Source: Vermamoeba vermiformis (Eukaryota). From it: 64,000 nt of DNA. The stretch covers positions 186,001 through 250,000 of the forward strand of contig JBEWZL010000278.1 in the NCBI GenBank assembly GCA_045837725.1. The letters are read 5' to 3'. Within the stretch, counting starts at the first letter, position 1. Each line of letters starts with the position of its first letter. Below, piece by piece: positions 17,614 to 42,898 of this stretch. The notes beneath the pieces are model-generated. The model was not told the DNA's origin. It saw only the letters and a list, made by a program, of their open reading frames with translations, and did not search any database. The translations under genes were made by a program, and so were the position numbers.

Positions 17614-17935
17614 TTTCGTTCTGGTTTGGTCTGTTCGAGAATGAAGGACTGTCGTGATCTAAAATTACAATAAATCTAGCGGGCTGATTAACTTTTCGCG
17701 TCGAATTCTGTTGTTTTCATGAAAAAAGAATTGTGCGCTTAGATTGCCTCGATTGCTGGGTGTTGTATCATTTGGGGGGGCGACTTCCCACCAGAACGCC
17801 TATTTGCTTGAGTAATATTCTACAATACAAAAGTAAATTCTATTAATTCAGGTGCATCACGTCCTACCTTCGAAACAACAGCATTTTTCGGTGAGATTTG
17901 AGGAACAATAATTTTAAGAGGTGGAGAATTGAATG

Positions 17936-17937
<2 letters not shown>

Positions 17938-18008
<71 letters not shown>
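17938..18008. repeat. Poly(T) homopolymer, 71 nt
   Basis: Uninterrupted T run directly visible. Confidence 0.95.
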
Positions 18009-18009
<1 letters not shown>

Positions 18010-18056
18010 TGATTGTTCGAGCCCCCATCGCAAAATCATTCGTCAAATCTATCATC

Positions 18057-18521
18057 ATGAACGCAATAGCTTATCGAAACGCTGTATTACTCTTCACTGC
18101 TGCTTACGCTAGCTTCTGGGTCTTCAACTTTTGGACCGGATCGCCCAATTTGTTCCGCTTGTTCTACGGCAAGGACAGATCGCCTTTGGAAGCTGTAGGA
18201 TTTCGCTTTGGAGCATGTGCTATAATAACAATAGTACTCATGTGCCTTACTGCCGTATGGGGATTCGACCACGAAAAGAGAAGGGCGCTACGCATACTCA
18301 CTCCTGTCTGGGTGGCGAATCTGCTCATCGCTTTGGCTGACAAACATCTTTTCGACCCATTTTGGTGGAATATGCTCACTCTATCGTTTATCGGAGGCGT
18401 AATTACGTCTTACATTGGTGGATTCGTCCTTGCAAACGAAAAAGTGACTATGCACGGGCACAAACACATCGCACCCGATCCCGCTGTTGTTGCCGAGGCT
18501 TCAAAGACTCATCAAGCTTAG
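18057..18521 (+). CDS. Small 4-TM membrane protein, tandem paralog 2 (154 aa)
   Basis: MNAIAYRNAVLLF...EASKTHQA*. The poly-Phe N-terminal extension in the ORF track is spurious. Confidence 0.85.
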   Translation: MNAIAYRNAVLLFTAAYASFWVFNFWTGSPNLFRLFYGKDRSPLEAVGFRFGACAIITIVLMCLTAVWGFDHEKRRALRILTPVWVANLLIALADKHLFDPFWWNMLTLSFIGGVITSYIGGFVLANEKVTMHGHKHIAPDPAVVAEASKTHQA

Positions 18522-18894
18522 TTTCGGTCCTGTTAGAATGAGGGACTGATCGTGATCTGAAATTTTCCGAGTAAAAATAAATGTAGCGTGTTAAATGAAC
18601 TCTTCGCTTCGATTTCATTTCAAATGTATCGCGATGTTCCGTATTGAGTGCGAGTGGACTGGTTGCCTCGATTGTCATCATTGCCGGAGTGATTTTCGAA
18701 GAGATCGCGATCCAACCAGATACAGCACTGTTAAATCCTATATACGAAGATTAATTCAACTTGTTTTAATATATATCAAGTAGAAGTATCAATCAAGTCC
18801 TACTTTTGAAACAGCAATAATTTTCGGTGAGATCTGAGGTACAACCATTTTGTATTTGCCCTGTAGCCCCGAATCTTTCGTTATATCTACCACA

Positions 18895-19359
18895 ATGAAC
18901 GCAACATCTTATCGAAACGCGGTACTACTCTTCACGGCTATCTACTCGAGCTGGTGGGGCTACGTGTTCTGGACTGGCTCGCCGAATCTGTTCAACATGG
19001 TCTTTGGCAAGGACAGGTCCCTATTAGAAGCATCGGGATATCGCTACGCAGCATGTGGTAACATAGGAATAGTGCTTCTATGTCTATCATCTGCTTGGGG
19101 CCTCGACTACGAAAAAGTGCGCGCACTGAGGATCCTGACGCCGGTCTGGCTCGCTGATCTTCTCATCATTCTCGCTGACAAGCCCTTATATAACACATTT
19201 TGGTGGAATCTCATTGCTGCCTCGTTTGTTTTCGGCATCGGTATCTCATTCATTGGCGGCTTCATCCTTTCGAACGAAAAAGTGTCGATCCACGTGCATA
19301 AGCCCGTAGTTCATGACCCGAATGTAGTAACAGATGCGTCTAAAGTACATCAGGCTTAG
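18895..19359 (+). CDS. Small 4-TM membrane protein, tandem paralog 3 (154 aa, most diverged)
   Basis: MNATSYRNAVLLF...DASKVHQA*; collinear with paralogs 1 and 2. Confidence 0.85.
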   Translation: MNATSYRNAVLLFTAIYSSWWGYVFWTGSPNLFNMVFGKDRSLLEASGYRYAACGNIGIVLLCLSSAWGLDYEKVRALRILTPVWLADLLIILADKPLYNTFWWNLIAASFVFGIGISFIGGFILSNEKVSIHVHKPVVHDPNVVTDASKVHQA

Positions 19360-20724: not shown

Positions 20725-22836
20725 ATGGCTTTATTTTTGCCGATTTTGTTCTTAATTTTCGCCTCCATTGGTCTCTTTGCTTTGTACTCGAACAACAAGC
20801 TTCAGGTAATTAAAATTAGTGGATCTTGATCTCGTAAATTAACAATTTTGTCCAGAATTTCCATAAGAGCCTGACAATTCCCGGACCAAAACCTCAATTA
20901 TTTTGGGGTAATATTCGACAATTTAGCACTGACTTCCAGACTCAATTGAAGGGCATTATTGATAGTAAGTCCCGATCCGTCGCGCTATCTCCAAACCAAA
21001 AAAATTAGTCAAACTTTTAAATATGCGTTGTACAAGTCCATCTATAATAGCTAGGTATTATGTACCAATTGATTTCTGGAAATTAATCCTGTGTTGCAGC
21101 GTACGGTGAACCGGAGACTTTGCTTACTAGAATCTTTTTCTTCCACGCACCTACTATTATCGCTGTTAAGGCCGATCATGTTAAGCAGGTACGCATATAT
21201 TATATTAATACTTCAAATTTATTTCATTTAAATAACTTACTTAAATTTCGCGGCGCAGATCTTGAACGTTACCAGCGAACGCCAAGACGCTATCAACAAA
21301 GTTCATATGGACCATTTCTTAGGTCCTAAGGCCATGGTCTCGTTGCACGAAGATGAATGGAGATTTCACCGTCGCATTGTTTCCAAGGCCTTCGGTTACG
21401 CGCAATTGCAAGCTCTCGCGCCAGCATTTGCCTCGTGCGGTCAAGAGCTAATTGATGCACTGTCTAAGATCTCTAGCACCACTAATGTTAATATCGAGGC
21501 ATATTTGAAAGCTGTTACGTTGAACGTTATCGGTCGAACTGGATTCGGTTACAATTTTGACGCCGTTAATCGCATGGGAACTGGTATTGATCCTGTTGCT
21601 CAAGTAAGTCCTAATTCCTATTTATTAATAATATCCGACGTTGATTCAGTCGCCAACTATTTTTATAGTCTTCGTATTTTCGTACAAAAAATGATTTTTA
21701 ATTCTTAAATTACTTTCAGGCCTTTGAATATTTGCTGGCAGCTCACGCTACTCGCGAACGATCAATTAATCCGCTCGATTGGTTCTACAACGCACCTACT
21801 AAGAAGAATGCTCGTCACAAGGCCGAAAGAACATTGTTGCGCAGTACTATTCAAAATATTATCACCCGTCGCAGAAAGGAACAAGCTGAAGGCTCGCAAC
21901 AGCGTCACAATGATTTGTTGGAGTACTTTTTGGAGGCACATGACGACGACTCGGGTCAAAAGTTCACTGATGAGGATTTGCTCGATGAATTGCTCACTAT
22001 GATGTTCGCTGGGTACGTTGACTATATGCTTCCACATTGCGTCTTAATTGGTCTAAAATCTGTCACTTTTTTGACACCTCGGTGACACGTGTCATCGCGA
22101 AACTTTTTTCTCGATGTAGTCAGTTGCCATAGGCTTTATATGCATACTAATCGATTGTATTACGCAGCTATGACACGACCTCATTGATGTTGTCGTACAC
22201 ATTGTACTTGTTGAATATGAACAGAGACTGCGAGGCACTGTTGCACAAAGAGGCTGTTGAAGTCTTAGGCAACAGATTGCCCGGCTTCGACGACATTGCC
22301 AAGCTCAAGTACACTCAGTGCGTGTTGAAAGAGTCGTTGCGATTCTATCCTCCTGCTCCGTTGACTGCTCGCACTTTGACTCAAGATTTCGAGCTGGAAG
22401 GTCACATCATTCCCAAGGGATACAATATGTTCTTGCCTATATATTACATCCACACTCACCCTGTTAACTGGCCTGATGAGCCTCTCAAGTTCAAGCCTGG
22501 TAAGTTCGGGATATTGACCACGTCTACATCCATCAAAATTTTTTTCATCTTTGAAATACCGTCTATAATCTCATATGATTCTAATGATCAATATTTGCAG
22601 AGAGATTTGCAGATCTCGAGTCGTACAACCCCGCGGCTTTCTTGCCGTTCAGTGGCGGTGCTCGTACTTGCGTCGGTCAAAAGTTCGCAATGAACGAAGG
22701 CATTATAGTCTTGGCGATGATGGCTCGTCAGTTCTATTTCAGAGTGCAAGAGGGATTTGTGTTGAAGACGACTATGGGCATCGTGCAGAAACCTGTCAGT
22801 GGCTTGCCTGTCTTCGTGCACCAGTACAAGAACTAA
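20725..22836 (+). CDS. Cytochrome P450 (CYP4/CYP3-clan-like)
   Basis: N-terminal TM plus PGP hinge, WxxxR (WRFHR), I-helix MFAGYDTT (across an intron), K-helix KESLR, PER motif and heme signature FSGGARTCVG. Confidence 0.95.
22083..22094. promoter_or_regulatory. Intronic palindrome TGACACGTGTCA (copy 1 of 5)
   Basis: Exact match inside a P450 intron; function inferred only. Confidence 0.5.
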
Positions 22837-23872
22837 CCAAAATCCATGTTTTAACTTTATTTATTACTCTGTTGTAAATAAATTGCACTTTATATAGCGC
22901 ATGGTTAATGTCGCGGTATTTCGGGGCAGATCTAGCGGGTAATAGGTAAAAGATTGAAATGTGAATTGAAAAAAAAATCTTGCAAGATTAGGGTTTATTG
23001 TAAATTGTAAATAGAACTGTATAGCATATTTATATATGTATATATTTTAATGGATAATAAAAACAAGAAGCTTGTTGGGTCGCTGGATCAATCAACAAAA
23101 GGTAACAATAGCAAATCCAAATTGCACCGCTAAATTGAAGCTTCAAATTAATTCTAAAAATATGTTATTAATTATCATGAATAATTAGAGCTAGCATCGC
23201 CTCTACTCCAGGACAGTCATGAAAATCAGAAAAATATAGATCGAGGCGCCAACAAATACACAGTTTCTGGTAAACTCTTCAATACATTAATCACTCAATA
23301 TTAATCATGTTTTAGAAACATGGGCGATGATCCAAGAAGCACGAGCGAGAAACCCCTCGATCGATGAAAACTCGTGGCAGGACTCAGATCAAGAGCTATT
23401 TCAAAATCATTATAAAAGAAAGCATACATGTAGACAATTTTTATTCCAACCAATCATAGGTAGACCTAATTTCTAGATTTTTTGATATTTTTCGTGGATC
23501 TGACATTTGACTCAGGAACTTGTTTTACTGGCGTATGGCTCATTATAACTATCATAGCAGTAGTGTCTGTAGCATTAGTAGTCGGTTTGGTTGTTGGATT
23601 GTATAAATCAAGGTAGTTTTGAAACAGCTTTTTTGGCTCGGCGGATCCACATACATTTGATTCCATTCATACACTAAAATGTACCCTTCCTCATGGTAAC
23701 TACGTCTTAATATCGCATTTGATAGCGATAACATTATGAAACCGCCACAGGCAATGAAATTTTATCTGGGTTAATCTCGAATTCTTTTTCTTGTGATCGA
23801 TTTTTTGTTTTATTGTCCCCTCGTGTCGTTTTCTTTTCATTTCAGTCTATATTTTGTGACTATTCACCACAA

Positions 23873-26402
23873 ATGATTCGCCAATTAATTTTAACAATTG
23901 CGATCTGCTTTGGCATCGTCTACGGCCAAACTTTTTCGGGTAAGCCTTGTCGGATCACGACGATCGTTGCAGAATACTGATTCTTATATTTAAGCCGTCT
24001 TCCACAACAATTTCCCTCCAAACAGCATGCCTATTGGCGTCAGATCCAGAACTTATGGTGTCAGTCTGACGCAAAATCCAATTTCAGACTCGCCAGTTAT
24101 AGTTAACTTAGCCTCAACTGGCCTACAATTCTCGCCATCTTCATTTACATTCACTTCGACCTCGTCTGTCGTTCAGTCATTCACCGTAACGGTAAGTTTT
24201 GGATCTGGCGAATTGAATTAAATTAATTTATTTAATTACGAATGTAGGCAACGGCGCTTGGTTATCAACAGATTAATGTAACAGGCGGCGTTACTGCACA
24301 AAACTTCTATGTTTCTGTAACTCAGCGTAAGTTAGTGTATAACTGCCGCTGAAAAGATCCGCCTTAATTAATGCTTATTTTAGGCGTTATTTATGCTCAA
24401 GAACAGACTACATATAATGCCGTTGGCCAATGGACTAACTTTGTTTCATTCGCAATGACTTACGACGATCCCAGTTCAGATTTGGCCATCCACACGAATC
24501 TGACTAGCTCAGACACGCCTCGCATCTCTCTAAGCGGCATTGATACGCAACTCTCTAACTCTAAGCGCGGCGGTTATTTATCTGTTCGCAGCGACGTCGA
24601 GGGCACTTCTCTTTTGAAATTCACTCCCATCGGATCCCGCGCCGATTGGTACCAGATCTCAAGCACTATCGTTGAGCTCGATATCGCCCAAAGTAAGTCA
24701 TTAATATAGAATAATAATAACTCCGACCCACAAAATCAAATTACGCACCATTATTCTCAAACGATTTCATATTTTTGTTCCGCGTGTCATAATGTCACTT
24801 GAGATTAAACTAATTCTTTTCTTTTATTTCCTTATTAGGAAGTATCTCCGTCCCTTCCAACCTCAACGCATTCAAAGTCGGAGAGCGTGTCTCATATCAA
24901 ATTCTATTGTCCCAGCCTTCAACTGGCTCGCTGTCAATCACGCCAGCTGGATCTGGCTTGTTTTTCGAGCCCTCCACTGTGACCATTGCTGCTGGCTCAC
25001 TTTCAGCCACTGTCACTGTCTACGCTAAATATGCCTCTGATTCACCAGTATCCATCTCTTACACTGTGAGCGGATCGGATGCAGTCATGTACGACTTCAG
25101 CGGCTTCACTACTATTTCAAGAATTAATTCGCGTAAGTATAGGACTACATTATTATAATAAGACTTATCTTAATGAGCCGAAACTAATTTTTTTGGTCTA
25201 TTTTTAGCTCAAGTCACGTGCGTTCCAGTTAAAACTTCTACCGGGTACAAACAACCCGTGCACATCAACTGCCGCGCCGACGACTTTACTGACTCAGTGA
25301 CTATCACTCCGACAGGTGAAGGCATGAGCTTCTCACCGCAATCAGTCACTTTCTCTGCTGGTTGCACATCCGCAACTTTTGAAGTGACTCCTTCAGTCGT
25401 GGGACAAATTCCGATCTATTATGACATTAGCGGTGATAATTTCTACGCTACTTTTAGTCCTGCCAGCAAGATTCATACTATTAATGTTAGCAAACGTAAG
25501 TCAACGCAAAATTTTTTGGTTGTTAGGTGGCGTCTTGACCTAACATTTCCTTATTTAGGCATTGTCACCATCACCGGTCCTTCAGTGAATGTTGCAGGAG
25601 GCGAGAACTACGTGATGGTTTCACTGTACGGCAGCGATACTTCAACGTTGTATCCGCCCTACAGCTCGTTGATTGTCACTCCTTGCACGCAGTCCTCGGG
25701 CTTGGTCGCATTCGAGCCTTCATCACTCACCTTCGACAACACGCAATCAGTTGGTGCTATTAGTGTCAGACCTCTTGTGCCTGGTGTCACACAAGTCGAT
25801 TTTGGGTTTACTTTGAGCGGCGATGATGCTTATGGATTCCAAATTTTACCAGCCTATAGCACTCAGATCGTTAACAGTAAGTACTAATATTTGATACTAT
25901 TATTGAAATAGTATAGATCTAATATGAATTTGTTTAGATGTATTCGATGTCAAGTACTACACGGACGAAGAACATGTCAAGCAATACCAACGTCTTCCCG
26001 CCCTCAACACGACCGAAGCATTCAATATTTCGGTGTTTAAGTACGATAATATTATTAAACTACCCACCTATCGCGAGTCAATTTTATTAAGCTACCACAC
26101 TCGAGTCCTAATATTTGTTTTAACTCAGCATCGTTGGTAACGTCACTTTGACGCCTGAAAGTGCCGTCGTCACATTCACTCCTAGCTCGTACACTTTCAC
26201 TCGCACCGACACTACAGCCAGCTTTAATATCACTGGCATGCGAAGTGGAACATCGTACGTGACCTTCAAGCTCACTGGCGACTCTGCTCGTTTGTTCACC
26301 GTGCCCAAGCCTTCGTTGCAAGTCACCGTACTCGGATCTAGTGCCGCTGTTACACTTGCCAGCACATTGTTGATCTTGTTGTGTGCATTCATTGCACTGT
26401 AA
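23873..26402 (+). CDS. Secreted, probably GPI-anchored surface protein with repeated beta-sandwich (Ig/Calx-beta-like) modules
   Basis: Signal peptide MIRQLILTIAICFGIVYGQ. Recurrent F.PSS.TF....F.V....G...Y..SG.DA units. Hydrophobic C-terminus LASTLLILLCAFIAL*. Multiple GT-AG introns. Confidence 0.75.
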
Positions 26403-26489
26403 TGTATATAAAAATTAAAGACTAGATATCTAATTAGCACCACAATTGATTCGGTCAATGTTCAAGAAAGCGTCTGGCAACACTTGAAT

Positions 26490-29469
26490 TTATTTTCGGT
26501 ACGGTTGTTTTGGCGGATTTGACTTGGCCAATGCCGGCGAGGACGGTGAAGGTTTGAACTCGTCGGAAGTAGATTTGGGCTTGACCATTGTTGGCGAGGA
26601 CTTGGCCAGTGCGTGATCGCCAAATGTTGCTCGTCGAGGTGAAGTTTGTGAGCCTGTACTGGCATTCTCGTTTGAACTGGCCTTGGCAAGTGGTATCTTT
26701 GGCAATGGTTTTTTGGGCTTCTTTGAAGCCTCATCTTTCTCAGGCGTTGTTGTTTTGATCGTGCTTGCCCCGCTCTTATCCACAAATGTTGCACTCAAAG
26801 TACTGTTGCCGCTCTTATCTACAAATGTGCCCGTCATTGTCTTGTTGAAAGTGTTGCCGCCGCTCTTGTCCACGAAAGTGCCCGCGTTCATAGTCTTATT
26901 CATCGTGTTATTGCTTCTCTTGTCAACAAAAGTACCCGTGTTCATAGTACTGCCAGCGTTCTTATCGACAAAAGTGCCCGTGCTGAGTGTCTTGTTCGTG
27001 ACAAATGTGCCGCTGTTCATCGTCTTGTTCACCGTGTTGTTCGTGCTTTTATCGACAAAAGTGCTCGAGGCCATTGTGCCCGCGTTGCTCCTATCAACAA
27101 ATGTACTCGTGGAGTCGTTGAAGTACATCATACTTTGACTAGTGTTGACCAAGTTCATGTCGTTCGCGCCCGCGTTGATTGTTTTGACGTTACTCTGGCC
27201 CTTTGTGTTTGCAGGCAATGCTTTTGACGGCAATGTTTTGGAGCCTGCATCATTTGGCATCGAATTGCTGATCGTTAATTTCTGCGAAAGTTGTTAGGGT
27301 CACATTGTTGACACGTGAAAAATATTGAGTGACACGTGTCAAAGTGTCAAACTTACCCTCATTTTATCACGCATCACAAGTTGATATTCTGTTAACAGCG
27401 GTGCTAACTCTTCTTGCGCGTTCAATTGAGCACCTTGCAGGACAAATGGGTGACTCAACAGCTCGACAGCTGTCAATCGACCACTCGTCTCTTTGGACAA
27501 ACATTTCTTCAAGAAATCTGCAAATTCGGGACTCCACCGCTCAGGATTTTTTAACTTAGGTGCGTCCTGATTCATGGTTAGATTATTAATATAAGACGAA
27601 TAGAGGCTACCTCGTACTTGTTTTGGAATGGTCATCATCGCTTGAAGTGGATGTGTTCCGTGCATCGGTGGAGCTCGCTCGGCCAATTCTATCGCAGTAA
27701 TTCCCAGGGCCCATATGTCACTTTTTTCGCTGTACTGTCGTTTGCTGCAAATTTCCTGCAATAACATTAGTTCATGAATGATCGGATAAAAAGTGAAATT
27801 TCACGTACTGGTGACATCCAATAGGGCGTGCCAACAAGAGTATCGTTCTTGCCCATGACTGCCTCCATTGTCGTGGCAACACCAAAATCGGCTATTTTGA
27901 CCTCGCCCTTGGAATTCATCAGAATATTTGCAGCTTTAATATCCCGATGCAGAATTCTTTTTGCGTGAAGGTAAGCTAATCCGAGCAAGGACTGGTATAA
28001 TACAAGTGATATTTGTGACTCTGCTAGTGAGATATTTAACGTTGTTATAAGATCTTTCGTGGATCCTGACTCGCAATAGTCCATCAAAATCTGTTCATGA
28101 AAAATGACACGTGTCAATTGCAATTCTTCATGCGGTACAAATAATAGCGCGACTTACCCATAGATGCTTATCTTTAGCAATAGCGCCATAATAATTTACA
28201 ATGTGATTGTGCCGGCACTTTTTCAAAATGTCAATCTCGTCCTGCACTTCCTTGCGTGCTGCCGCGTTGTCAATTTCAACAATTTTGATGGCCAAGATGA
28301 CATTGGCTTCACGATGCCGAGCTTTGTACACGACACCATAAGCGCTAATGATAGTGTTAATATGGCATATTAAATAAGTCCCGAAACCTTACCCTTGACC
28401 GAGTTTTTCGATCAATTCAAAAATCTTCAGCGGATCTTGTCCAGTCCAATTAAAATCTATGTCAACGTGAATATTATGGCTCAGATTATATGGCGCACTA
28501 ACTACGAGCGACTCTTCTTCATTAGGAATTTCCATCGAATTTGCTGGCGATGCTTTTTTCAGCAAATTATCGGTGCTCTGAATTTTAATTAGAATATAAG
28601 TAGTAATCCATTTAATAATTATTTAAATAATTATTAATTGAACTTACTTTTGTCTTCATGTCTTTGACTGCAATAAAATTCTTTAGGGTCTCTTCAAAAA
28701 TCAACGACACGTTTTGACCTGGCAAAAAGAGAACGAGTAAGAATTAATCTTGTACATAAATATTCCTTTTTTGGTAATTTTACCAGTCTTCGCTGACACA
28801 GGAAAGAATGGCCAGCCAAATAATTTTGACACTTTTTGGCCCTCTTGAACTCCTTGCTCATTATTCTCATCCGCTGTTATAATTCATTAATAAATGTCAA
28901 ATATAATGTGCTGGCATACCGCAATTTCCCGCCAAAACAGCTACGAGGCTGGATCCGCCGCGTACTGACATAATTTCATCTTTTATTTGAACCAGGGCCT
29001 CAAGTGTCTTGCGCGATGTGACCGAATAGACGAATATAAACGCGTCTGCCCATTTATACCACTAAAATAAATTAGGTTGATTTATTTTGTATTTTCTTAC
29101 CTTTGTGTGGAGAAAATTGTTCTTGGGATCTCCGCCTGTATCCTATTCAATTGAAATTAATATTCTATGACGCAGCAATATTTAATTTTATTACCAATAT
29201 GGTCACATTGAATGTCTGGCCTCGGATATCAAATGATTTTTGGTGGCGATCCTCTATTTAAATTTTTAATTTTAATAACCGAATTATTTAGCAGTAATTT
29301 TGGTAAAATTACATACCTATCGTTGGGTAAGGCGAAATAAAAAATGTTTCGTGGCAAAGCTGGCTAACTAAAGCAGTTTTACCGACACCTGATACGCCAA
29401 CCAATGCCTGTCAGATCAGTTAATTAAAAACCTTATTAAATATCTTTATCTTACTATTTTAACTTCCAT
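26490..29469 (-). CDS. Ras-like small GTPase - CRIB/PBD - STE20-family Ser/Thr kinase fusion with repetitive Thr-rich tail
   Basis: In-phase splicing gives [53 protein letters not shown], then [14 protein letters not shown] (CRIB), then [37 protein letters not shown]. Confidence 0.85.
26770..27110 (-). repeat. Degenerate coding repeat, 8 copies of (S/G/A)TFV(DK) interleaved with (N/K/S/G)TM
   Basis: Visible in the translation of ORF 26490-27260. Confidence 0.85.
27330..27341. promoter_or_regulatory. Intronic palindrome TGACACGTGTCA (copy 2)
   Basis: Exact match inside a kinase-gene intron, flanked by extra TGACAC/GTGTCA half-sites. Confidence 0.5.
28105..28116. promoter_or_regulatory. Intronic palindrome TGACACGTGTCA (copy 3)
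   Basis: Exact match inside a kinase-gene intron. Confidence 0.5.
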
Positions 29470-29581
29470 GAGGTATTGTATCTCATATCATTTTGCTAGT
29501 ATTGAATCACAAATGACGAAAATGGTTCATTAATGCAGTAATAACAATTCTCCGATTACGCACGCAAATTACAACTTTTAT

Positions 29582-31849
29582 TTACATTTTTTTATCCTTC
29601 AAATACTCGGTCAATGTTTTAGGCTCAATAGCGAGCCGAGGATTACTCTGGATCTTCTTGACAGCCCGAACAATATTTTCTAAGTGATTGTACACTAAGT
29701 AAGCGAGCGCATCCACGACGTCTTTTTGCACCGAAATATTATAATTTTGAAAATCGCAGCTAGATTTCAGCCATTCAGTGAATTTCTTCCGTGGCCTGCC
29801 AAAACTAACTTTGCAACAATTCTCGAAGAAAATGTACTGTGGCTGCGTCATATTCCTCGAAAATTCTTCTCGTTCAGCTAATCTACTTAATTTTTCTTCT
29901 TTAATCTTCTCTATTGAACAGTCTTCGATGGCTTGATCCGCACAACTCGTCATAGATTTCAACTGATCTATTGACGGTGCTACCCAATCAGGTCGCAGCT
30001 GGACGTCATTATCTTCATGATTCTCTTCGTTATTGTTATTTTTGGCTCCTTCGTTGTTATTCTCTTCAATTTCCATCGCTTGTTGTTTCGCGTCTTTTGT
30101 TGCCTTTTTGTTATCACCTTCATCGACTTTATCTGACTCTGCCCAATAGGCTTCTATATCCGCTCCAGTATCCTATAATATCACTCATTAATATCGCTTG
30201 TAAAGTGACGTACTGGATCCAGATCTCGATCCGGGCTGGTTTAACAAAAAAGATTGTTCTACTTACATCCATATGCTGCGCAAATGCTTTACTTGTTTTC
30301 AAAAATGATAGGAAGTGTTCTACTAATCGAATCGACTTCATATCTGGAAACAGTGCTCGTGCAAAGTGATCCAATTTCACGCCTACTTTTCTGACCGAAG
30401 AACTGCCTTCTTTCACTGTCGAATCCTCTGACTCCTCTTCAACACTTTAAGTAATGTTAATAACGACATTATCGATGATGTAGATTGACTTACTCTCCGT
30501 GAGACTTGTCTTTATGCGCTTCGTGCGATAATTTTTGCAGCAAATTCTGACCAAATTTCGTCGCTTCAGCCTCGAGCAATTTCGATGTCTCGACACTAAG
30601 AATAAAATTAATATTATTATGCAAATATAAAACTATATTAAAGTAAGCGTCATTGACTTACTTTGGCTGAGCAACTTCGCCCCATGAGTGCATCATGCTT
30701 TTAATTTCCTCTTCGTACGTAGGTTTTGACTTTCTAATTGGCACTAATTCCCTAAAATAATTAATATTAATAAAAATGACACTAAATAAATGTTTCACGT
30801 ACTTATTGACAATCATATTGTTGGCATTAACTTGATGAGGACTCTCAATTAACATCCTCTGAATGGCTATTTTCATGTACTGATCGCGCGGTAACATTCC
30901 TTGCAGCTCTTGCAAAGTGTACGACGCGTATTTGGACAGCAGATCTGACTCTTGATCTGTAATCGTACTCGTGTTAGCAAAACTCCTATAGTTACAACAG
31001 ACGCCATAATACCTTGTACTGAAGAATTTAATAGTGCTGATTTTTGTTTTGACTTGCTTTTCTTCGTCGTTGTTGCTGGAGATCCATCAGTCTTTTTTGC
31101 ACGAGGTTTTTTAGGCTTAGGAGTCTCCTCTCCTTCCTCACTTTCCGATTTTTTGGTCTTTTTAGGCGTGGCTTTCTTCTTTGCTGGCTTTTTACCGTTA
31201 GTTTCTTCGGTGTTCGCGACTTCTGGTTGTTGTGAGGTTTGATCCAGTTGTGATTCGGCTGTACTTGCTTGTTGTTGCGTGTTTTGTTCTTCTTCTGTAT
31301 TTTTCTTCGTAGATTTAGTGGTTCTTTTCTTCTTTGGTGGTTCTACATCCGGATCGAAGTCATCCGCCTGGATCTACCGCCAAAAAATTATTTATGATTC
31401 AGATTTTGTACATTATGATTTAAATATATCAAGTGGTAAATTAATGGCCTTATTGTAATTTAACAAATTTACCTTGCGTTTCCTCGATCGTGGTTTCGGT
31501 GTTTCTTCTTCGTCTTTCATTTCCTCGTCCTAACAATAGCAATTAATACATAATAGTAACAAGTGTTATCTCTTACAAGTATAGCGTCTTCTGTATAACG
31601 CACGGGCTTGGCACGGGCCCTTCGAGTTCTTATTCTACGACAGATCACAGTTAGCCTCACTCCACAACATTGACCACTACTTACTCCTCCATAACAGCGT
31701 ATTATACGAGGCTGTTTAGCGACCCGTCGGCTGATGTGGTTGCTTCTTAGCTGGTTACGCTTCTTTCTTTTTCCTTGCGTGTTCGTGTGAACAACAACGC
31801 TACCCGCAACTTGAACGACGCTAATCTCATTGCACCCCTGAGTTAGCAT
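29582..31849 (-). CDS. SPT3: Spt3/SUPT3H-like SAGA histone-fold protein with long K/E-rich N-terminal extension
   Basis: YEEEIKSMMHSWGEVAQP; RLAEREEFSRNMTQPQYIFFENCCKVSF..KKFTEWL; DVVDALAYLVYNHLENIV. Start codon uncertain. Confidence 0.75.
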
Positions 31850-32354
31850 TGCACGTCAAGTATTGTTGCTGGCGGTAAGACTAATAACCGAACTAAAGAA
31901 AGTTGGGCAAATCTGGATATGATTTTGGGCTTACTTTAACGAGCAAAAATTTGTTTACATAATTTCCGACAATTATTATATTGCCAGAAACCGAAGGTCC
32001 CATTTGTAAAATTATACAAAGGGTTTTATAATTTACATGATAGATTTCCTACAACGGATGAGACTGTCGCCATAAGGCTTAGCACGAGTTACTCAATTAA
32101 TTTGCACTAATTTATACAAAACTACGATCAAAGGCGTAGTCACCCTATAATTTATCAACGAATGGCTTTCACTGCTTTAACCAGACGAGGCATCCTTTCT
32201 CTAAGCTCATGCTTTCTTCATTCGTGGCCTCTTCCTTATTTTAGCACTTCCATTAGTGTTATTCATACTTTTCTTAGCTTTAGTCGGCCAGCAACCAAAC
32301 CACAACAAATTTGGCGCAGATCTGGCATAAAATGAAAATTTTGGACTCGTTTAG

Positions 32355-32557
32355 ATCACCTTCTCGGCCTTTTGGCTATGATCAAGTGTAGTATCTGTTC
32401 TTATCAGTTTAATCTCTGATAGCTGGTCTATGGACCGGCACAAGATTAAATTTATTTTTTGAGAGGGATGCAGTTTAAAAACCTGCAGCTTGCTGTGGGT
32501 TCTGTATCGCGGATCTTCTCGGCATTGCACAATATGGCCTTGCTAGGTCCACCTCCA
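32355..32557 (+). ncRNA. U2: U2 spliceosomal snRNA
   Basis: ATCACCTTCTCGGCCTTTTGGCTATGATCAAGTGTAGTATCTGTTCTTATCAGTTTAATCTCTGATA is nearly identical to the conserved U2 5' end (branch-site GUAGUA, stem IIa). Sm-like site AATTTATTTTTTGA; ATTGCAC loop near the 3' end. Confidence 0.95.
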
Positions 32558-32992
32558 CCTTACAAAATATCAAAAAAAATATTAAAACTGGGGTTTGGGG
32601 TAATGGGTTAGTACTGGTTTTGGTGGCAACCACCGCATCTGTACCTTTATTTACGTACCATAAAGAGCTTTTAATATTAATTAGCGATTGGTTCATTTTC
32701 TATTTTATCCTTCTGTCACATTTATGACGCGTTTTTCCATGCTACCTATAGTAATTGATTTCAGCGTAATTCCACTGTAATTACATAATAACATGATAAT
32801 GATAATCGTACACCGAAACACTCGTTCATTGCATTCTTATTAATGATGCTTGTGCATAATTACGCAAGTGTCCGTATCGCGACTCTATTCCGAACCGATT
32901 CACACAACGAGTGTCTAAAATTGCTGTTTAATGTCGCCATTTTAGCTCTTTTGAATAATGATAACAACAAATACTAAATGTTAATTGTAAAT

Positions 32993-35900
32993 ATGAAACT
33001 ATTGCTAGTCGTAGCTGTCGTTTGTTGTCTGAATGTTGCAAGATCAGGTAAAAATAGGCGAGACATTTGATAGACAAATCATAATACTAATGCCTCATAA
33101 TATTTGTTATTAGCTGCCCCTGTAGCAACTAGCGCGACGTATCAGGTAGAAAAACAAAACTCGGTGATTTGGAATTACACTGACATTATCGGATCCCAGG
33201 TTAAAAGCGCCACTATTAATGGTATCGAGTACAAGGCAGCAGTATTTAATGCGGAGTTCGACCAGGACCTATACGTCTTGGATAACTTTCCCTGTCAATG
33301 CGGGATGTGCTCAACGAATGTTTTGACAACAGCAGCAAACGAAAATTCTTTCAATTTCACTGATTTAGCCATTGGAAAGTGGGAAGAGGTAACGCAAGCA
33401 TATTTAATTAATGAATTTGGCGCGATAATAATTTTTTGAAAGGGCGAACTGATTGGAACGCAATCTATAAAATATTATCGATTGGATACCAGTGCAGAGC
33501 AGCTATGTCATCATATTACCATTGAGGTTGAAGTATTTCATGGCTTTGCAAGCGTTGTTGTGGCTACTGGACGGTATGTCAAGGTTTGCATAACTTGCCT
33601 TATTTGGAAAAAATACGAGACTCTGGATGAAACTTGTCAAGATTCGATATTTGTTTATGCCCAACCAAATTATTTAATTAGAATTATTAAATCGTTCACA
33701 AGTTCGTGTAATGTGAGCCGATCCGAACATGAGACAGAAACTAATTAGTGCTTTAGAATTCCTTCATTAGCCGATTACGATTGGTACAGACCTGTAACTG
33801 GACGAAGAATTTTCAAATTATGCAATTCACACGCGGCCTATGGACAGGGCCGATTTTATGTCGGAGTGGTCGTCAATCAGCACAACGAATACAATTTATA
33901 CAAGATTAGATACATCACTGAAAAGAACCCCGATTGTCCGCCATTAACTCCGAACCCCGCGATTCCATCAGGTACGAGATATCTCCGGAGATATTTCCTG
34001 GTTTACTCAAATATTAGTAGATTATCCCGAAGGCTTCCAATGGCTGCAAGACGGTCGAGCCACAATTGGCTTCGTAGAGCGCGAGTCCTATAAATATTAT
34101 GGATTTCAAATCACCACTCAGTGCACAAGATTCGCCGTGTCGCTGCAGAAGAACTCATCGGGTGAAGCAGATCTGTACATGTCGGTCGACAACAAGCCTC
34201 TCGGATTGTTCCAGCCACTCGACCCACGTCGTGATTGGCTGTCAAACAACGACGGAGACGATGTCATATCTATTCACTATTGTCATGACGCACCGCCTCC
34301 CTTTACGTTTTTCTTGGCGGTGACAGCTTTTGACACGGAGACTGGCTTTGATATTATTGCGACTACGCGTAAGTTCAACATCGATAAATATTATATAGCA
34401 CTTTTATTGAACCATTGTGTTCAGAGAATGAGTTTGTACTGTGGCCTTTGAGCGGACTTGCATTGAATTCTCCAAACACGCACTTGGCACGTACGTTTCG
34501 CGACACTTGAAGAAAGCGGTGGAATATTTACGATTTAACATTTATTTAGACTCTTTTCGTCTTGAATGTGACTCGCCTGATGGTACTGCAAATGAACAGT
34601 TCTTCTGCGAGTTCCCGTCGTATCTGGACTGCTACCAAGATGTCTTTCACTGCTGTTTTCCGTTCTATCCAATCTCTGCCATTCAAACTCCGAATCCGTT
34701 GTGGCCGTGGAACGCTGGTGACTCGTCATTGAAAGCTTTTTCAGAAATTTTGTGGTATGATTTGGCAACGCTTAAATTTTCGCGATTGTAATGTTTTCAT
34801 AGGGACGACATGGATTATAATCAAACTCATCAAGCCAATCGCTTCACGGTTGTATTGATGATCTCGCAGCGAGATGAAGACAGCATCAACTTGTTTTCGC
34901 AAACTACAGACTTTGGCAAGTGCAGAATGATTTGGACCGGTCAAATTACAAACAGCGATGGAGAAGTACGTGCACTAAACAATTATAACCCAGACAAACG
35001 TTAATAATCGATCGTAGGCCATAAGAGATGAGTTAACATTTCAGCCGGCGAATTTGAACTGCACAAAATCATTCGAGAACTTGGTTCAATCGAGCGCAGA
35101 TATCATTAATGAAATGTCACTTTCAGTGGACTATTTAGAACTCACGAAGGCTCACTACATGGTAATTGCAGTGCAATTTTGTTTCGGTGTTTATACCGAC
35201 ATTTTTTGTTACCCGGACCAATTCCTCCTCTGGCAATATTCATTAATTTAATGATACACCTGGTCCAACTAATTTTATCTTGTATTAAGCTCAATTTCGA
35301 GTTTTTGCTTGAGGACTGGTATGGATGCAACGAGTTTATTCTTGGACTAGGCAACACAACCAACTTCGACGTCGTGCAATCTGATCTTCAAGTCTGCTTA
35401 CACTACCCTGTATGTAGTGTACAAATATTGAAATACCGGTAGCTAATTCTTTCAGAATACTCCTGAGTACAACAGCGATCCGTGCTGCACGCCAGCGTAC
35501 GTAGTTTTTACAAGCGTAATATCATCTTGCTAATCAATTCTTAGTTTATTGAACGATCAGTGCTGTGCAACGAGTGACTTGACGTTCAGTTCGAAGTTAC
35601 TTAAACAGGCCAACGAATCACTCATCGCGTCAAAGTGCTCCAACCCCACGTGCTCGCTGAAACAGCTAGACAATTTAGTGGGCATTCAAAGCGCTATTGT
35701 AAATCCTGAGACCGGCTGCACGGCTTCTTTTAGACGCGAAGCTAATTCTGCTAAATACGACGGCTATCAGTCGTTCATCAACACGTGCCAGTACGAGATC
35801 TTGGGCGAGAGATTGCAAGGCATAAAATGCTCTGCCAATTCCGATTGTTACAGTAACGTGTGCAACAAAACTACAGGACTATGTTCGCAAGGCAAGGCAG

Positions 35901-38900
35901 AGTTGATTGACGTACGTACACGAGATTCACGATTATTGAAATGTCTAACTTGACTATTAGTGTCTCGTATCAAAAATTGATACTAGCATTGCTCGTTTCA
36001 TGTTCAACAATTGGGGACTCAAAGAGAACGTCACTAGCACGAGATTGGCTGAAGAACTGGTCACTCGCTACACTCTGTCAAACACTTGTGTTGGTCCAAC
36101 AGGCATTGACTATCGGTAAGTGTGACACGTGTCAATTTTTTTACACCTTTGGAACTAACGTTGATTAGCGATCATTACTTGTACGGCCGTGAAGAGCAAA
36201 CTTGCACCGATGAATGTCCTCCGTCAAGAGAGCCTCGATGCTTGGACAAGACGTGTCCAGTGCCTGCTGAATGCGACGAGGAACAAAGTGGCATTTGTTA
36301 TCGATCTTACGTAAGTCCAGTCTGTGTTTCAGTAGGACGTAACTGTGCTAACATTTGTCGTAGCGATTGATTCGCGGTGAGCCGTCACAATGCTTGAACG
36401 ACAAGACGTGCAACTGGCTCGATTGTTCACAACTCTCTGATGTACAGTGTCAAACGGACTGTGCTAATTTCGTCGAGCCTGAGTTCTGCGGCGATTGTAG
36501 CTCTGGCTCGTTGCCTTGTAGAGACACGGGACTGAACCAAACTGCCTGCAGTGAGGGCATTTGTGACATTGAAGGCGTGCCATTGAACGAAGTAAGGTTC
36601 TACCCTGCCATCTATATTTTCCTACTAATCCTCGTGCAGTGCCTGACCACGGGTGTGTGTAATGCCAAATGCGATAACTCTTCTTGCCTCAACGAGACCT
36701 CATGTGCCGTTAGTGGCATTGTAAGTAGATTTAAGCTGTAATGACATCAACGACTAACAAACATAGTGCTCGGATCAAGCGCTGTTTGCCGATTACATTG
36801 CTAAATACGGAGCGGATGGAATTTGTCTCAAGCCCAAAGGCCACGAGCTCAACTTCATCGCCACTTGTGCCTCAGAAGAAATCAATAGTCCATTTGGCTG
36901 TGGCCTTCCTCAGTACTTGAACGAGACCTCGTGCACTTCCGCAGGACATATGTGGTGGACTTGGGCCACGGATCGAGACAGCTGCTTGAGCTTTAAGACT
37001 TGCTGCCGAGTCTATTTTTGGCAACAGCTTTGTGAGCTGGAAAGATCAAGAACAATGTGCTAGTTGTCACGGCGAGTTTAGTACAGCGTTTACTTGGTCG
37101 AATGGCACGTGGCGTTATGGCAATGTACGACCGTTAGTCTGGATGTCACGTGGTTATGTTTCAGTGAACAAGTTCGGCGAATCATTTGACATTATTGCCT
37201 TGAGAAAGGCTGTCAGTGCTGCTATTGTGAGCAGAATTTCTCCAGCCTACACAACTGAAGCTGTTTGCAGGCAAGTTTGAGACATCTTTCATTGACTTGG
37301 GTGAGAGTATTATACTGACCTTTGGCTACAGGTACAGCGGCAGTGTCAATGTGTTGAATACTTTGCTGTGTGATTGCAACTCTAACTTCGACTCTGCCGG
37401 CAATTGTTACGACAACTACGCCACTTCAACGCTCATAGGAGTGGTGCGTGCCTGTCCTTACATCACTTCTTCAGTCACGGTATGTTGTTTACGCTTAGTA
37501 TATCCCAAAGAGCTAACCGTTCAACAAGGCCTCGCCTGCCACGTTGCGAGTGTTCGCCGACACCATGTCAGCTGATTCGTTCTGCAAAGCTGTGCAACTT
37601 GAATCAACAAGTGCCTCTTTCTACACGTCGGAATCGAGCATCGCTTTGTCTTCGGAGATCTACAATAAGAGGTAATCACTGTGTAATTCCTTCAGTGTGA
37701 CACCCGTCAACTAATGCTGGCTCCTTCAGAATTCCCAACGATTATGCCGTGGTTAATAACGCACATGGTGGCATTGTCGGACAAATTATTTCTGACGGTG
37801 TCATTATCAACATTGATTTGAGCGATGGCACAACATTGGCGAATCCATTTGAGCTCTGCATTGACATTGATCAAGACATTGGCCGTGCCCCTGCTTACTC
37901 TGTGTACGGCTTTGGACAGCTATTGTAAGTATATCACCATTTATAGTCTTCGTACCTAAATGTGGGTTTATTAGGCCTAATGGCACTATTGTCTTGCTTG
38001 ACAACGAAGTCACAACAACGTCAACAAGTGTTTGTGCACGAGTGCTCAACGGCACTTATTTCGCAATTGCTCGACAAGATGGGGACTGGCAGAGTGTTCA
38101 GCCATATGACGAGCTCCAAGCAACACTCAAATGGGTTGGTCTCGCGTTGTACTTTGTCGTGGTCATCTTTGGCGTGTTTCAACTTGCCTTTGTAGCCACG
38201 AACTTCCGCTCATTGATTCGTGGCCAGCAGAAGATCGTCTTTGTGACCATTGTCCTTGTCTTTAATATACGTGAGTATTAAATCGCCTACTGATACTTGT
38301 GTACTAACATTTAGTAGTTCGAGGTGTCTACTTTGCACTGCCAGTCAACTCGTTCAAAGAGTTCTACATTGTGCAGTACTTGCTCTTCGAGCTACCCACC
38401 TTCTTGTTCTTCACAATTTACACCATCATTCTTTACCTCTGGTACGTTATCATAGTATTTCTTACGTCCTAGTCTCATGTTCATTCACTTCACAGGAGTG
38501 GCGTGCTTATCAAACAATCAGTATTGTCCAAGGGCAAGGCACGAGTGCGAGTCCGTAAAATACGCACAGTGTACATTGTTGTGAATGCCATCATGTACGC
38601 AGTGTTTGTGGCATTAGTGTTGCTCAATCAGCTCTTGCCGCAAGCTCAACAAGAGTGCAAGATTGGATCTGCTAGTAACGCTACTTCGGCACGATATTAC
38701 ATCATTTTGGCGTATCAAATTTTCATTGCAGCTGTGTGCTTTGGCGTCAGCTTGGCCTTCATGATTCAAGGCATTCAGTTTATTATCGTAAGCGCCGTAC
38801 TTAATCAACTGGTAGTTCTTAAACTTATCGCTTCACAGATATTTAAACGAGCTAAAATGGTCAACACATCGGGCAGCAAAGATCGAAGAAGACACTTAGT

Positions 38901-39464
38901 ATGATATCAGTATTATTCAAGTTGACACCTTTGTTGACACTTTTGACATTTTAGATTACGTTCATCGCCGTGACGTGTACTGCACTCTTCATCGGTCGTA
39001 CAATTGTGTTCTTGTACGCAGCAGTGACAGGCAATCCAGTGACCATCATTATCTTCGTCTTGTTCGAAGTACTGCCCTCACTAGCGCTGTTGTACTACTT
39101 GCGACCGTACGACTGGCAGCGACCATTCTCCACGGCCAAGAACTCGTCGGGCACTGACGGCAAATCTTCGCACAAGAGCACGCGATTGAGCACGGTATCT
39201 GGCAAGCTGGAGAACATGACTTCAACAAGCAGCATGGGCCCTGATGACTCGACGAAGTCTCCAAAGTCACCAGCAGCTATTCAAACTGTCACTACACCTC
39301 AACAGATAACAGATCCAGCGCTCAAATCAAGCTCATCTGATAGCTCTGGCGAGGAACCAAATGCTACGGCATTAAGTACTGCTGACAATGAAGAGCAAGA
39401 GCAGTATCCGCTCAGTGATGACTCGTCTAGCGAAAGCGGAAGTGAACAAGAAAATGACGTGTAA
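32993..39464 (+). CDS. Very large Cys-rich ectodomain + 7TM protein (THH1/TOM1/GPR137-like TM region), adhesion-receptor-like
   Basis: Signal peptide MKLLLVVAVVCCLNVARS, many Cys-rich exons, seven hydrophobic segments including LFELPTFLFFTIYTIILYLW and FEVLPSLALLYYL, and a Ser/acidic cytoplasmic tail. More than 20 GT-AG introns. Confidence 0.75.
36123..36134. promoter_or_regulatory. Intronic palindrome TGACACGTGTCA (copy 4)
   Basis: Exact match just after a GTAAG donor in the 7TM gene. Confidence 0.5.
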
Positions 39465-39598
39465 AATAACTGGCAAGTGTAATTAGATTAAATTTTTGTT
39501 TTATTTTTATTTCATAGGCTCAATGACTGTTTGGGTGCGATTGATTGAAAAAATATATTATTATTAATTATTAATTAAATGACCCGGCGACCGATCGA

Positions 39599-42344
39599 TT
39601 AATCTGGTGCTTTCTGCTTATCGTCAGAAGCTTTCGATAAACGAGCAACTCTGAGGCAAGCCAACTCGTTTCTAGCGGCATTGGAGTGGTTGTACACAGT
39701 CTCATTGAACGCCTGTGTAGCATCCTTGCCCAAATACGCTTGAATCAACTTGCGACCACCAGGGTGTTGGTCGATAAATTCAGTGACGTCGTGAATAACG
39801 TCATCGATCAAAATCAACGACGCGCCTTCAGCGACACGGGACTGATACTGTTGCATGCTCATTTCAGGGAGGTCATCGAAAGAGCGGCCCCAATTGAACT
39901 TGGACTTCTCTTGATCGATCTTCTTTTGGATCATGCTGATGCGACCCTTGGCAAAGAGATCTTTCTTGAATTTCTTCAAGTTGTAGGTCAGACCAACCTT
40001 GCTCAAAGTGTAGATGAGCCACTTTCCTATTCATCAATCCATATTAGTACAAGTCCGTGATATATATTGGGTGACACGTGTCATGTCAAAAAATAAGTGG
40101 AAGTTGAACGTACCAGGGTCATAGTGGTACCACAAGAGGCCATTACGATAGTCATAAGGGAACTCGTGGTGGAAGTTGTGGAATCCTTCACCCCAAGTCC
40201 ACAGTGACACGAAGATGCTGTCACGCGGGGTACGTTGATCGCTGTAAGTAGCGTCACCCCAGTAGTGGGCCAAACTGTTGATGAAGAAGGTGAACTGTTG
40301 GATGAACACGGCCTTAGTGAAGCCAGCAATGAGCAAGCCACCGAGCCAGTCACCCCAGCCAAAGCCAGCGATCAACATGGGCATGATCAAGCCGAAGAAG
40401 ATGGCAAGAGGTGCGTAGTAGCGGTGTTGGAATTGCAACATAGGATCAGCCTCCAAGTCACTAATGTCAGTCTTGACGATCTCGTGGAAGTCAGGGCCCC
40501 AAGCATCACGCTTCCAGAACATCCAGCCAATGTGCGAGTGGAAGAAACCTTGCTTGGCATTGTACGGATCTTTCTTCGTGTCCGTGAATCGGTGGTGAAT
40601 TCTGTGATCGTGGCACCAGCTGAAGCACGAGCCTTCGAAGGTCCAGGTAGCCATCACCAAGAGGGGCAACTTGACGATCGGATGGGCATCGTACGAGCGA
40701 TGAGACCACAGTCTGTGGTAGCCAGAAGTGATGCCAACGCCACCGACGTAGAACATGATGAAGGCTAGGATGGCAGTCTTGAGCGGAATGTCAATGAAGA
40801 ACGGTGCAATGATGCCGCAGATGGTCGAAACAACGAGCCAAATAGTGACGGTCCAATCGAGTTTAGTGAACAGAGTGCTGATGCTGAGACCAGTGCTGTC
40901 ATCAGCATACAAGTACTTCCACAACGAGGTCTCTTGGATGCGCTAGAGATTTAAATTAATAAAGATTTCCTTTTATGGAATTACTAAGAATATCGTAATT
41001 ATTACCTTGTCGAGTTTCTTTTGCATCAAAGCATAAGCCTTCTTGATGTTGTAGCTAGGAATGCTTTGAATGTTGTCAGAGGCAGCAACAGCCATGTAGT
41101 TCAAGTTGTCAGACAAGAGCTCGACCCACTTGGGGAACTTGACTGTTGAGAATGAAAACTCGAGATCTTTCTTCGCGGAGTTAAAATCCTTTTGGAACTG
41201 TTCCTTAGCGTTCTCAAAATCCTTCTGCAACTGTTCCTTGGCGTTAGAAATGTGTTCTTTGTACTCATTGTAACGCTCTTCGGCGGCTTTAAGGATCGTA
41301 GCGTGAGGGAGCTGATGCGCTTTTTGGAACGAGCTGGCCCAGAAGTGATAGACGGCCAAAGGAATGAAATAGTACTTGAACAAGCCCCACCAGCCAAGGT
41401 TCATGGCCATCAAGGGGAAGAACAGGCAGACAAAGGCGTAGATCAAAACCATGTTGACTGCGGTTCGCTTGTTGAGATTCAGATGCGCGCTGACTTGAGC
41501 CTTAGCCCATTGCCATGAGGACGCAAAGAACCAGAAGGGTGATGACAGCAATCCTATATTAGCAAGAGAATAGTCGTTAGAATTGGTTGTTACACATGTT
41601 CCAAGATCTGGTCTCAAAGTGACTTGTGCAAGATTGAATCACATATCAACGGAATCGCATTAAATCCTTAGTATTATAGTAATAACGGTATTCATATAAT
41701 GCATTATTGCTTACTTGATTTGTTAAAGTATTGGCGCCAAGATTGGAAGGGAGTCATCAAGGGCAACAGACAGAGAGTTCCGACAATATCATTGACGGTA
41801 TTATTCTCGAAGAATGCATCATTGCTGCATGCATAGGCTACAGTAAGGAGCTAGTATAAGCAGCGTTAGCATTTTGAAGATTGAACGGATCTAATATTTG
41901 TGTTGACACTTTCGGGTTGCAAATTTAAATTGATTCAAAATATGCATTTACAATGCTAAAGCGCGAACAAGTATGTCATTTAATAATTAGATGGTATAAA
42001 ATTTTGATCCGATCAGATTGAAATCATGAAATTTTTTCATTATCATCAATCGACTTACGCCTGTAACCGAAGTGCCTAAGAACAACCAGCCAATGGGTAG
42101 AAGATACCACGGAGTATTTGCGATGATTACGACACCGAGCGTAACAAAGGACAGGATCTTGATCAACGACCAGATCGCCTTTGTGGTGCTTTTTTGGAAC
42201 ACCTATGACAGATAAAACATTAATATACCATTCATTGAATGAATTGAAGCAGAAGAGAATTAAACTAAACGATGGGAATCAATCATTTACCTCTCTTGGC
42301 ACGAGATCTGCCAATGGAGGCATAGGAGCCACAAGCGAGGCCAT
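39599..42344 (-). CDS. Delta-9 acyl-CoA desaturase with C-terminal cytochrome b5 and an N-terminal His-less delta-12-like domain
   Basis: Delta-9 His boxes YHRLWSH, HDHRIHH, GEGFHNFHH; cytochrome b5 HPGG. Upstream exons splice in phase and resemble an omega-6/delta-12 desaturase fold. Confidence 0.9.
40072..40083. promoter_or_regulatory. Intronic palindrome TGACACGTGTCA (copy 5)
   Basis: Exact match inside a desaturase intron. Confidence 0.5.
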
Positions 42345-42898
42345 GAGCTGTGTTTGTTCGTCAAATATGGATTGCTGAAAAGACTGCCGTGCACTGGACC
42401 GCCAAAAAAAGTTGCGACGGACCGCTCGTGGACGGAGATCCCCAGAGAGATTGACACGTGGTCCCGAAATAACTCATTCTCCGATCTGACTCCTCAACGG
42501 CCAACTAATTTACCAAAATCCACGAAAATTAGCCATTAAATTAACTCCTCTTTAGGGAAATGGCCGGTTCCTAAGGCACCGTTGAATGTTCCAAGTAAGT
42601 AAAGTGCACGGCCCGCCATATTATTTAATCGATGAAACAAGCCAAAATATAAGTCATTAATCGAGAAGTAGTGAATAACTAATTTTGTTGGCCATCCTTT
42701 CGTCCAGAAATTCACGAAAAAATGTTCTTCTCGCAGATGCACCAGTTCCTTATGCCATAATGCACAATGGCTTTCTCGACTTGCTGCAGGGTATTATTAA
42801 GGCTAAATATTAAATATTTTTGAAATTGCTTTGCTTTTTCTTGTGGTTGCACCATCGAGCTGATTATTTTTTTGCTGTTGTTCTGAAGAGCACAACTC

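Follow-up and report, generated by a model that had tools for sequence, protein, structure and literature searches.

In the 64-kb window analyzed here (the whole 64,000-nt stretch of Vermamoeba vermiformis contig JBEWZL010000278.1, positions 186,001 to 250,000, from a compact, intron-rich genome with a GC content of ~41%), the 12-bp palindrome TGACACGTGTCA occurs five times, always within a modeled intron, and it is retained letter for letter in an orthologous intron of a relative. Its repetition, far beyond chance, its intronic position and its conservation are direct observations. TGACACGTGTCA is probably regulatory, and its pattern of occurrence makes it fairly likely to be bound, as double-stranded DNA, by a sequence-specific transcription factor acting as a homodimer. 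Intronic transcription-factor sites are a known kind of element; what would be new is a conserved, letter-perfect site deep in the gene bodies of an amoeba-like protist.

Little has been described of how free-living amoeba-like protists encode cis-regulation, and a conserved perfect site could serve both as bait for isolating the factor and as a genome-wide marker of its target genes. Unicellular eukaryotes are viewed as regulating mainly from proximal promoters; if the site does act more than 1.3 kb inside genes, it would bear on this view. Open-literature searches, with subscription journals and supplements outside their range, returned the exact TGACACGTGTCA only in Ebola virus papers and no paper on amoebal intronic enhancers, amoebal basic helix-loop-helix (bHLH) proteins or E-boxes, or Acanthamoeba N6-methyladenine (6mA)/GATC.

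Over-representation and placement of the palindrome

The five exact copies (copies 1 to 5, Table 1) lie where the first-pass annotation of this DNA had placed them. None of 100 dinucleotide shuffles contained five or more copies (mean 0.01), and no other 12-mer of the window is as strongly over-represented, whether judged by an order-2 or an order-3 Markov model. Allowing up to two mismatches yields 12 matches (five exact, none with one mismatch, and seven with two) against 2.41 expected. The spacing of the copies is irregular (775–8018 nt), and all of them fall inside 18 of the 64 kb. As the same annotation had stated, the hosts are four unrelated genes on both strands. They encode a cytochrome P450 (+), a kinase (two copies, −), a membrane protein (+), and a desaturase (−). 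The near-copies that it had listed in other introns (16137–16148, 37698, and 38923–38948) are also present and intronic.

Genes were modeled with a gene finder self-trained on the window, which gave 40 models with 192 introns (median 58 nt). The counts by sequence class use 27 models, each with 400 or more coding bases (13 of the 40, below 400 nt, were excluded), and cover 40161 exon, 14059 intron, and 9780 other bases; seven doubtful introns were removed before splice distances and half-sites were counted. All five copies are in GT-AG introns, each of which would introduce an in-frame stop if retained. The P450 junction is spanned without a gap by 123 of 123 homologue alignments, a count that takes in at least one read-through record (P0253), and the desaturase junction by 232 of 236; the long form of the desaturase is common to Capsaspora, dictyostelids, and other amoebae, with named records 55–57% identical at best. 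The kinase exons flanking intron 28091–28157 match Pkinase positions 12–74 and 75–166, with an unbroken join at 74/75, and introns 27282–27356 and 36116–36168 are based on splice signals, frame, and stops only. The position of the palindrome within the intron is not fixed, lying 7–70 nt from the donor and 14–73 nt from the acceptor, and copy 3 may overlap the branch site. No copy comes closer than 1358 nt to a modeled start codon, a post hoc and model-dependent figure that also holds for 26% of intron bases.

The palindrome had been described as lying always inside introns and as an intronic element. The first statement is correct for all five copies, and against the whole window the placement reaches P = 0.0005. 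However, the 27 modeled coding sequences offer no place able to encode TGACACGTGTCA, so that its absence from exons is uninformative, and the fair comparison, intron against intergenic DNA (5:0), gives P = 0.071. Moreover, where the protein permits, the core is over-used in exons as well: CACGTG is used at 17 of 78 codable places (5.75 expected), and the nine-letter three-quarter site, consisting of one perfect arm and CACGTG, at two of eight (0.15 expected). Given this exonic over-use, and another three-quarter site upstream of the desaturase start, TGACACGTGTCA has the appearance of a DNA word of gene bodies for which introns allow the perfect form, and the case for an intron-specific element is weak.

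Conservation in relatives

A metagenome scan returned nine loci, of which a single close one, contig L001, carries an orthologous desaturase gene; TGACACGTGTCA is missing from the other eight. L001 differs from the window at 42 of 99 four-fold degenerate sites (42%), and despite this divergence TGACACGTGTCA is exact in its orthologous desaturase intron. The palindrome is the longest string common to this intron pair (12 nt), whereas 53 unrelated introns reach at most 8 nt, and the chance of 12 sites remaining unchanged at the neutral rate is 0.576^12 = 0.0013. The three-quarter site upstream of the desaturase gene is also kept in L001, as CCACGTG(T/G)CA amid poorly aligned DNA.

The further relatives come from prokaryote-style gene calls that read into introns, and their back-translated peptides show compatibility with a site, not its DNA. 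In the P450 intron, the lineage formed by P0252, P0403, and P0405 is compatible with TGACACATGTCA at offset 71, against offset 70 in the window, and a 20-nt stretch around it also fits with one mismatch; P0253 is compatible with TGGCACGTGTCA at offset 91. Both fits are bordered by GG...TC. None of 43632 control positions matches the 16-mer this well, with one mismatch, and each P450 read-through has diverged over its remaining length. Four comparisons are informative, with the site exact in the L001 desaturase intron, one-mismatch-compatible in the two P450 lineages, and absent from the desaturase intron of P0122. P0001, P0402, and P0404 end before the site and are uninformative, and P0123 (145/152 identical), which ends like the window read-through, is too similar to add information. 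For copies 3 and 4 the searches yielded no relative, none of the nine read-through open reading frames (ORFs) of the window occurs in the protein collection, and the genome and viral collections searched gave no eukaryotic orthologue. The conservation in orthologous introns supports the protein-binding DNA element proposed in the first-pass annotation, and its assignment to a protein family holds only in part, as described below.

Candidate mechanism and competing explanations

A homodimer site on double-stranded DNA is suggested by the perfect dyad under selection, its free position in the intron, the unlike folds of the copies, and the related site upstream of a gene. TGACACGTGTCA would then be the optimal site of the homodimer, present in perfect form in introns, since coding sequence does not accommodate it and intergenic spacers are very short. 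Weaker versions, with one perfect arm and CACGTG, would occupy a promoter and synonymous positions, and selection would retain the site while the surrounding intron drifts, with some turnover. Recognition at the DNA level, a dimer, its protein family, and an effect on transcription, be it activation or repression, are what we infer.

As the reader, we tentatively favor a class-B bHLH protein, which would contact CACGTG plus TG(A/G/C)...CA flanks. Every variant has either CACGTG or CACATG at its core, with TG...CA outside: the core is CACGTG in all five copies, L001, P0253, and the upstream site, and CACATG-compatible in the P0252 lineage, CACATG being a tolerated secondary E-box. A bHLH reader is preferred because class-B bHLH alone accommodates all of these variants, if they are functional and not decayed. 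In its 12-bp dyad, CACGTG core, and TG-purine...pyrimidine-CA flanks, TGACACGTGTCA resembles the class-B E-box of E(spl)/HES/HEY proteins; tggCACGTGcca is the optimum for E(spl)/Hey (PMC1950541), and TGGCACGTGTCC was the strongest Her1 site (PMC3404119). The core is flanked by TGA...TCA in the window and, by back-translation, compatibly with TGG...TCA in P0253, compared with tgg...cca in E(spl)/HEY-like sites; one arm of the P0253 variant is of the E(spl) type. Unlike those sites, TGACACGTGTCA has A/T instead of G/C beside the core and is located in the gene bodies of a unicellular host.

Several observations weigh against the homodimer and bHLH reading. HES and HEY are animal proteins. The window contains no one-mismatch TGACACGTGTCA, and its introns contain CACATG three times and GACACATG not at all, which is unusual for a tolerant site. 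When synonymous codons were shuffled, a null that ignores codon-pair bias, CACGTG came only 13th among the 2080 hexamers. Because desaturase intron 3 carries a longer exact block (18 nt) between the window and L001, not all desaturase intron DNA is neutral, and the neutral yardstick may overstate the significance of the 12 conserved letters. The P0122 desaturase intron cannot encode the site, its best fit having three mismatches; this loss and the changed center in the P0252 lineage may belong to one lineage. Finally, three of the four informative comparisons are of the back-translated kind.

The first-pass annotation had assigned the palindrome to the motif class of three-amino-acid-loop-extension (TALE) homeodomain proteins. 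The geometry, with TGACA half-sites in inverted orientation 2 bp apart, does match the TGIF1/Meis/Hth site TGACAGCTGTCA, which shares 10 of 12 letters with TGACACGTGTCA and which TGIF1 binds as two monomers (PMC6158717, with the crystal site; bioRxiv 10.1101/706473), as well as the Iroquois minimal site ACAnnTGT (bioRxiv 10.64898/2026.01.21.700777), and TALE genes exist in Amoebozoa and Naegleria (PMC6219170). Within modeled introns, five of eight inverted TGACA pairs no more than 20 nt apart have a spacer of 2; TGACAC (24 vs 5.0, with 10 of the 24 being the palindromes), TGACAT (19 vs 8.1), and additional TGACA in the five host introns (5 vs 1.0 expected, P = 0.004) are enriched; and the P0252 variant retains both half-sites with a changed spacer. 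A TALE pair is nevertheless an unlikely reader: TGACAG, the Meis/TGIF half-site, is not enriched in introns (5 vs 4.0), the half-site of the palindrome being TGACAC; the spacer is CG in all five copies, not GC; the P0253 variant and the L001 upstream variant alter a TGACA arm and keep CACGTG; and the additional half-sites show a sense-strand bias (24 vs 15), often sit close to the branch region, and in part stem from tandem duplications. We likewise regard as unlikely a basic leucine zipper (bZIP) dimer of the G-box/abscisic acid response element (ABRE) or Hac1/unfolded protein response element 2 (UPRE2) type, which would read TGACACGTGTCA as two overlapping ACGTGTC sites and possibly tie endoplasmic reticulum and lipid genes to a stress response. 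The inner 10 letters are identical to those of these elements, with the G-box/ABRE sequence GACACGTGTC matched to bZIP factors in peach (PMC8133646) and ACGTGTC as the UPRE2 core (PMC11087760). An ACGTG(G/T)C arm is present on both strands of all copies, the upstream desaturase site varies from ACGTGTC to ACGTGGC at the K position of the ABRE, and the hosts include the desaturase, the P450, and the large membrane protein. However, the P0252-lineage variant breaks the ACGT core that L001 and P0253 keep, TGGCACGT of P0253 is not an ABRE arm by the consensus, and with only four host genes a pathway cannot be recognized. Moreover, G-box, ABRE, and UPRE2 are promoter elements, whereas none of the five perfect copies lies within 1358 nt of a modeled start and one three-quarter site lies upstream. 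The order of readers, bHLH before TALE before bZIP, is tentative because each discriminating variant is a single case, two of them from back-translation, and because neutral changes from CG to CA are frequent as well.

Explanations without a sequence-specific dimer were weighed as well. The statement that flanks are not shared did not hold for copies 2 and 5, which have 13 of 16 flank bases in common 3′ of the palindrome, read in transcript sense (P = 0.0028, from 20000 draws of five random intronic points) and have 25 of 28 nt in common overall, in the same orientation and both in last introns. This pair, and the short tandem duplications abutting several sites, would fit a relic of a ~28-nt mobile or duplicated element whose palindromic end persists. 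Relics of miniature inverted-repeat transposable elements (MITEs) and introners, the known comparison class, are similar in being short dispersed intronic repeats, here with one pair of shared flanks. The extended 28-nt unit has no match in viral contigs. In contrast to such relics, no target-site duplication was seen, the host introns have at most 10 nt in common outside TGACACGTGTCA, the remaining flank pairs are at background (one of 40 reaches 13/16 nt), and the palindrome is conserved instead of decaying, being exact at 42% neutral divergence, with five exact and no one-mismatch copies, the opposite of neutral decay. The tiny mobile-element footprint that had been offered as an explanation is therefore quite improbable. 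So, too, is a structural chromatin word, such as a nucleosome barrier, a modification target, or an element that suppresses internal transcription, which a general factor would recognize and which would not regulate individual genes. The distance of the copies from modeled starts would suit it, as would the enrichment of other palindromic words (GATC/AGATCT and TTCASTGAA) even at synonymous sites and the absence of GATC from the 437 nt of the five host introns (~2.9 expected), but the irregular spacing, the confinement to 18 kb, and the related site conserved just upstream of a start codon argue against it. We give the least credence to an RNA element acting on splicing, either a hairpin or the site of an RNA-binding protein. 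Copy 3 lies where a branch site is expected, and the introns at 27282 and of L001 fold better than shuffles (z −2.48 and −2.22); however, four of six folds are no better than shuffles (z range −2.48 to +1.09), no fold is common to the copies, the stem is only 4 bp in most of them with invariant loop letters, and Rfam gives no match at the TGACACGTGTCA sites. The variable splice-site distances and the lack of a shared fold likewise speak against the splicing signal that had been suggested, and the related site upstream of a gene does not suit an RNA element.

The surroundings of the palindrome contain further sequence in common. The clustered TGACA/TGTCA half-sites mentioned in the first-pass annotation are present and intronic (22061–22078, 27309, and 27344), but several represent short tandem duplications (27336–27351 and 38921–38952). 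The flank common to copies 2 and 5 ends in TCACG, the center of which would be 21 nt from the palindrome center; the same register holds TCAC in L001 and TCAT at copy 3, and by a rough estimate from few sites this match alone is not significant. The endoplasmic reticulum stress response element (ERSE, CCAAT-N9-CCACG) was rejected, as the spacing of the common flank does not fit. A broader proposal, which we hold to be possible but doubtful, is that the lineage regulates genes via a conserved promoter-distal intronic enhancer or silencer, built of the perfect 12-bp dyad and a second half-site one to two helical turns away (11 and 21 nt). It would be read by a lineage-specific dimer spanning the bHLH, bZIP, and TALE codes and would be one of several palindromic words shaping synonymous codon choice.

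Other features of the window and of the searches

Table 1. Positions of the palindrome, related sites, and other features in the window. Strands given for the palindrome, its near-copy, and the intronic three-quarter site are those of the host introns.
Feature	Position	Strand	Context	Remark
TGACACGTGTCA copy 1	22083–22094	+	Modeled intron 22013–22167, cytochrome P450 gene	70 nt from donor
TGACACGTGTCA copy 2	27330–27341	−	Modeled last intron 27282–27356, STE20-type kinase gene	15 nt from donor
TGACACGTGTCA copy 3	28105–28116	−	Modeled intron 28091–28157, STE20-type kinase gene	14 nt from acceptor
TGACACGTGTCA copy 4	36123–36134	+	Modeled intron 36116–36168, large cysteine-rich membrane protein gene	7 nt from donor
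TGACACGTGTCA copy 5	40072–40083	−	Modeled last intron 40027–40113, delta-9 desaturase/cytochrome b5 gene	Orthologue L001:2789–2800 exact
Copy 2 flank	27309–27329	−		16 nt common with copy 5 (13/16), leads into three-quarter site CACGTGTCA, 21 nt from copy 2
Copy 5 flank	40056–40071	−		16 nt common with copy 2; CAATA and TCAC also in L001
Two extra TGACA half-sites	22061–22078			22 and 11 nt before copy 1
8-nt tandem duplication	27336–27351			Creates extra half-site at 27344
Three TGACA half-sites	38921–38952	+	Intron 38899–38954	From 12-nt and 9-nt tandem repeats; may be branch-site sequence
Three-quarter site	16137–16148	−	Modeled intron 16133–16185	Two mismatches
Near-copy	37698–37709	+	Intron 37672–37729	Two mismatches, center changed
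Three-quarter site	42452–42462		~80 nt upstream of desaturase start codon (42372, conserved in L001)	CCACGTGTCA in window, CCACGTGGCA in L001
Three-quarter site	51131–51139		Modeled exon, PP6-type phosphatase (reading of translation)	One of two exonic
Three-quarter site	53364–53372		Exon of RabGAP-TBC gene	
Predicted fusion	26490–29469	−	Single modeled frame	Ras-like GTPase domain (weak Pfam matches, two exons) joined to STE20-type kinase and repetitive tail
U2 small nuclear RNA gene	32356–32557	+		
Three tandem intronless paralogues	17152–19359	+		154-aa membrane protein; first without Pfam match
~70-T run	17940–18010			Possibly assembly artefact or retroposed poly(A)
Diverged duplicate	36–309 and 3330–3650			~250 nt coding-like sequence, 12-mers in common
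Desaturase intron 3	41554–41714	−	L001:1171–1329	More conserved than neighbors

A scan of viral contigs for a donor plus the palindrome gave seven loci, six of which were examined around the match only. The seventh, L015 (IMG/VR record, 31704 nt), was considered as an intron-bearing eukaryote and rejected, as it is a tailed-phage region with TGACACGTGTCA in coding DNA. L015/G001 contains 18 exact TGACACGTGTCA, 11 of them within the 18-bp palindrome TTTTGACACGTGTCAAAA, at a spacing of 0.7–3.4 kb in coding DNA (control pattern 0); its ORFs are of baseplate and tail types by our own reading, and the region is unrelated to the protist. The 18-mer TTTTGACACGTGTCAAAA is found at 31 loci in viral contigs (L027–L057), with two to four copies in several records. 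The phage repeat resembles a parS/Noc-type nucleoid site.

Other palindromic words are frequent in the window. GATC (87 vs 36) and (A/G)GATC(C/T) (30 vs 6.4) are enriched in introns in a strand-symmetric manner, and the enrichment extends to intergenic DNA and to synonymous sites (246 vs 167); CATG, by contrast, is depleted. In yeast and plants, AGATCT serves as a GATA-type site. A second palindromic word, TTCA(C/G)TGAA, occurs at 2639, 2657, 4077, 5781, 25581, 29774, 37160, 44418, 46312, 46328, and 59827 and is used at 8 of 23 codable exon places (0.85 expected). Additionally, desaturase intron 3, which has no Rfam match, shares exact blocks of up to ~19 nt with L001, one of which holds a 12-bp AT-rich palindrome; this intron is possibly a microexon, a small RNA, or another cis-element.

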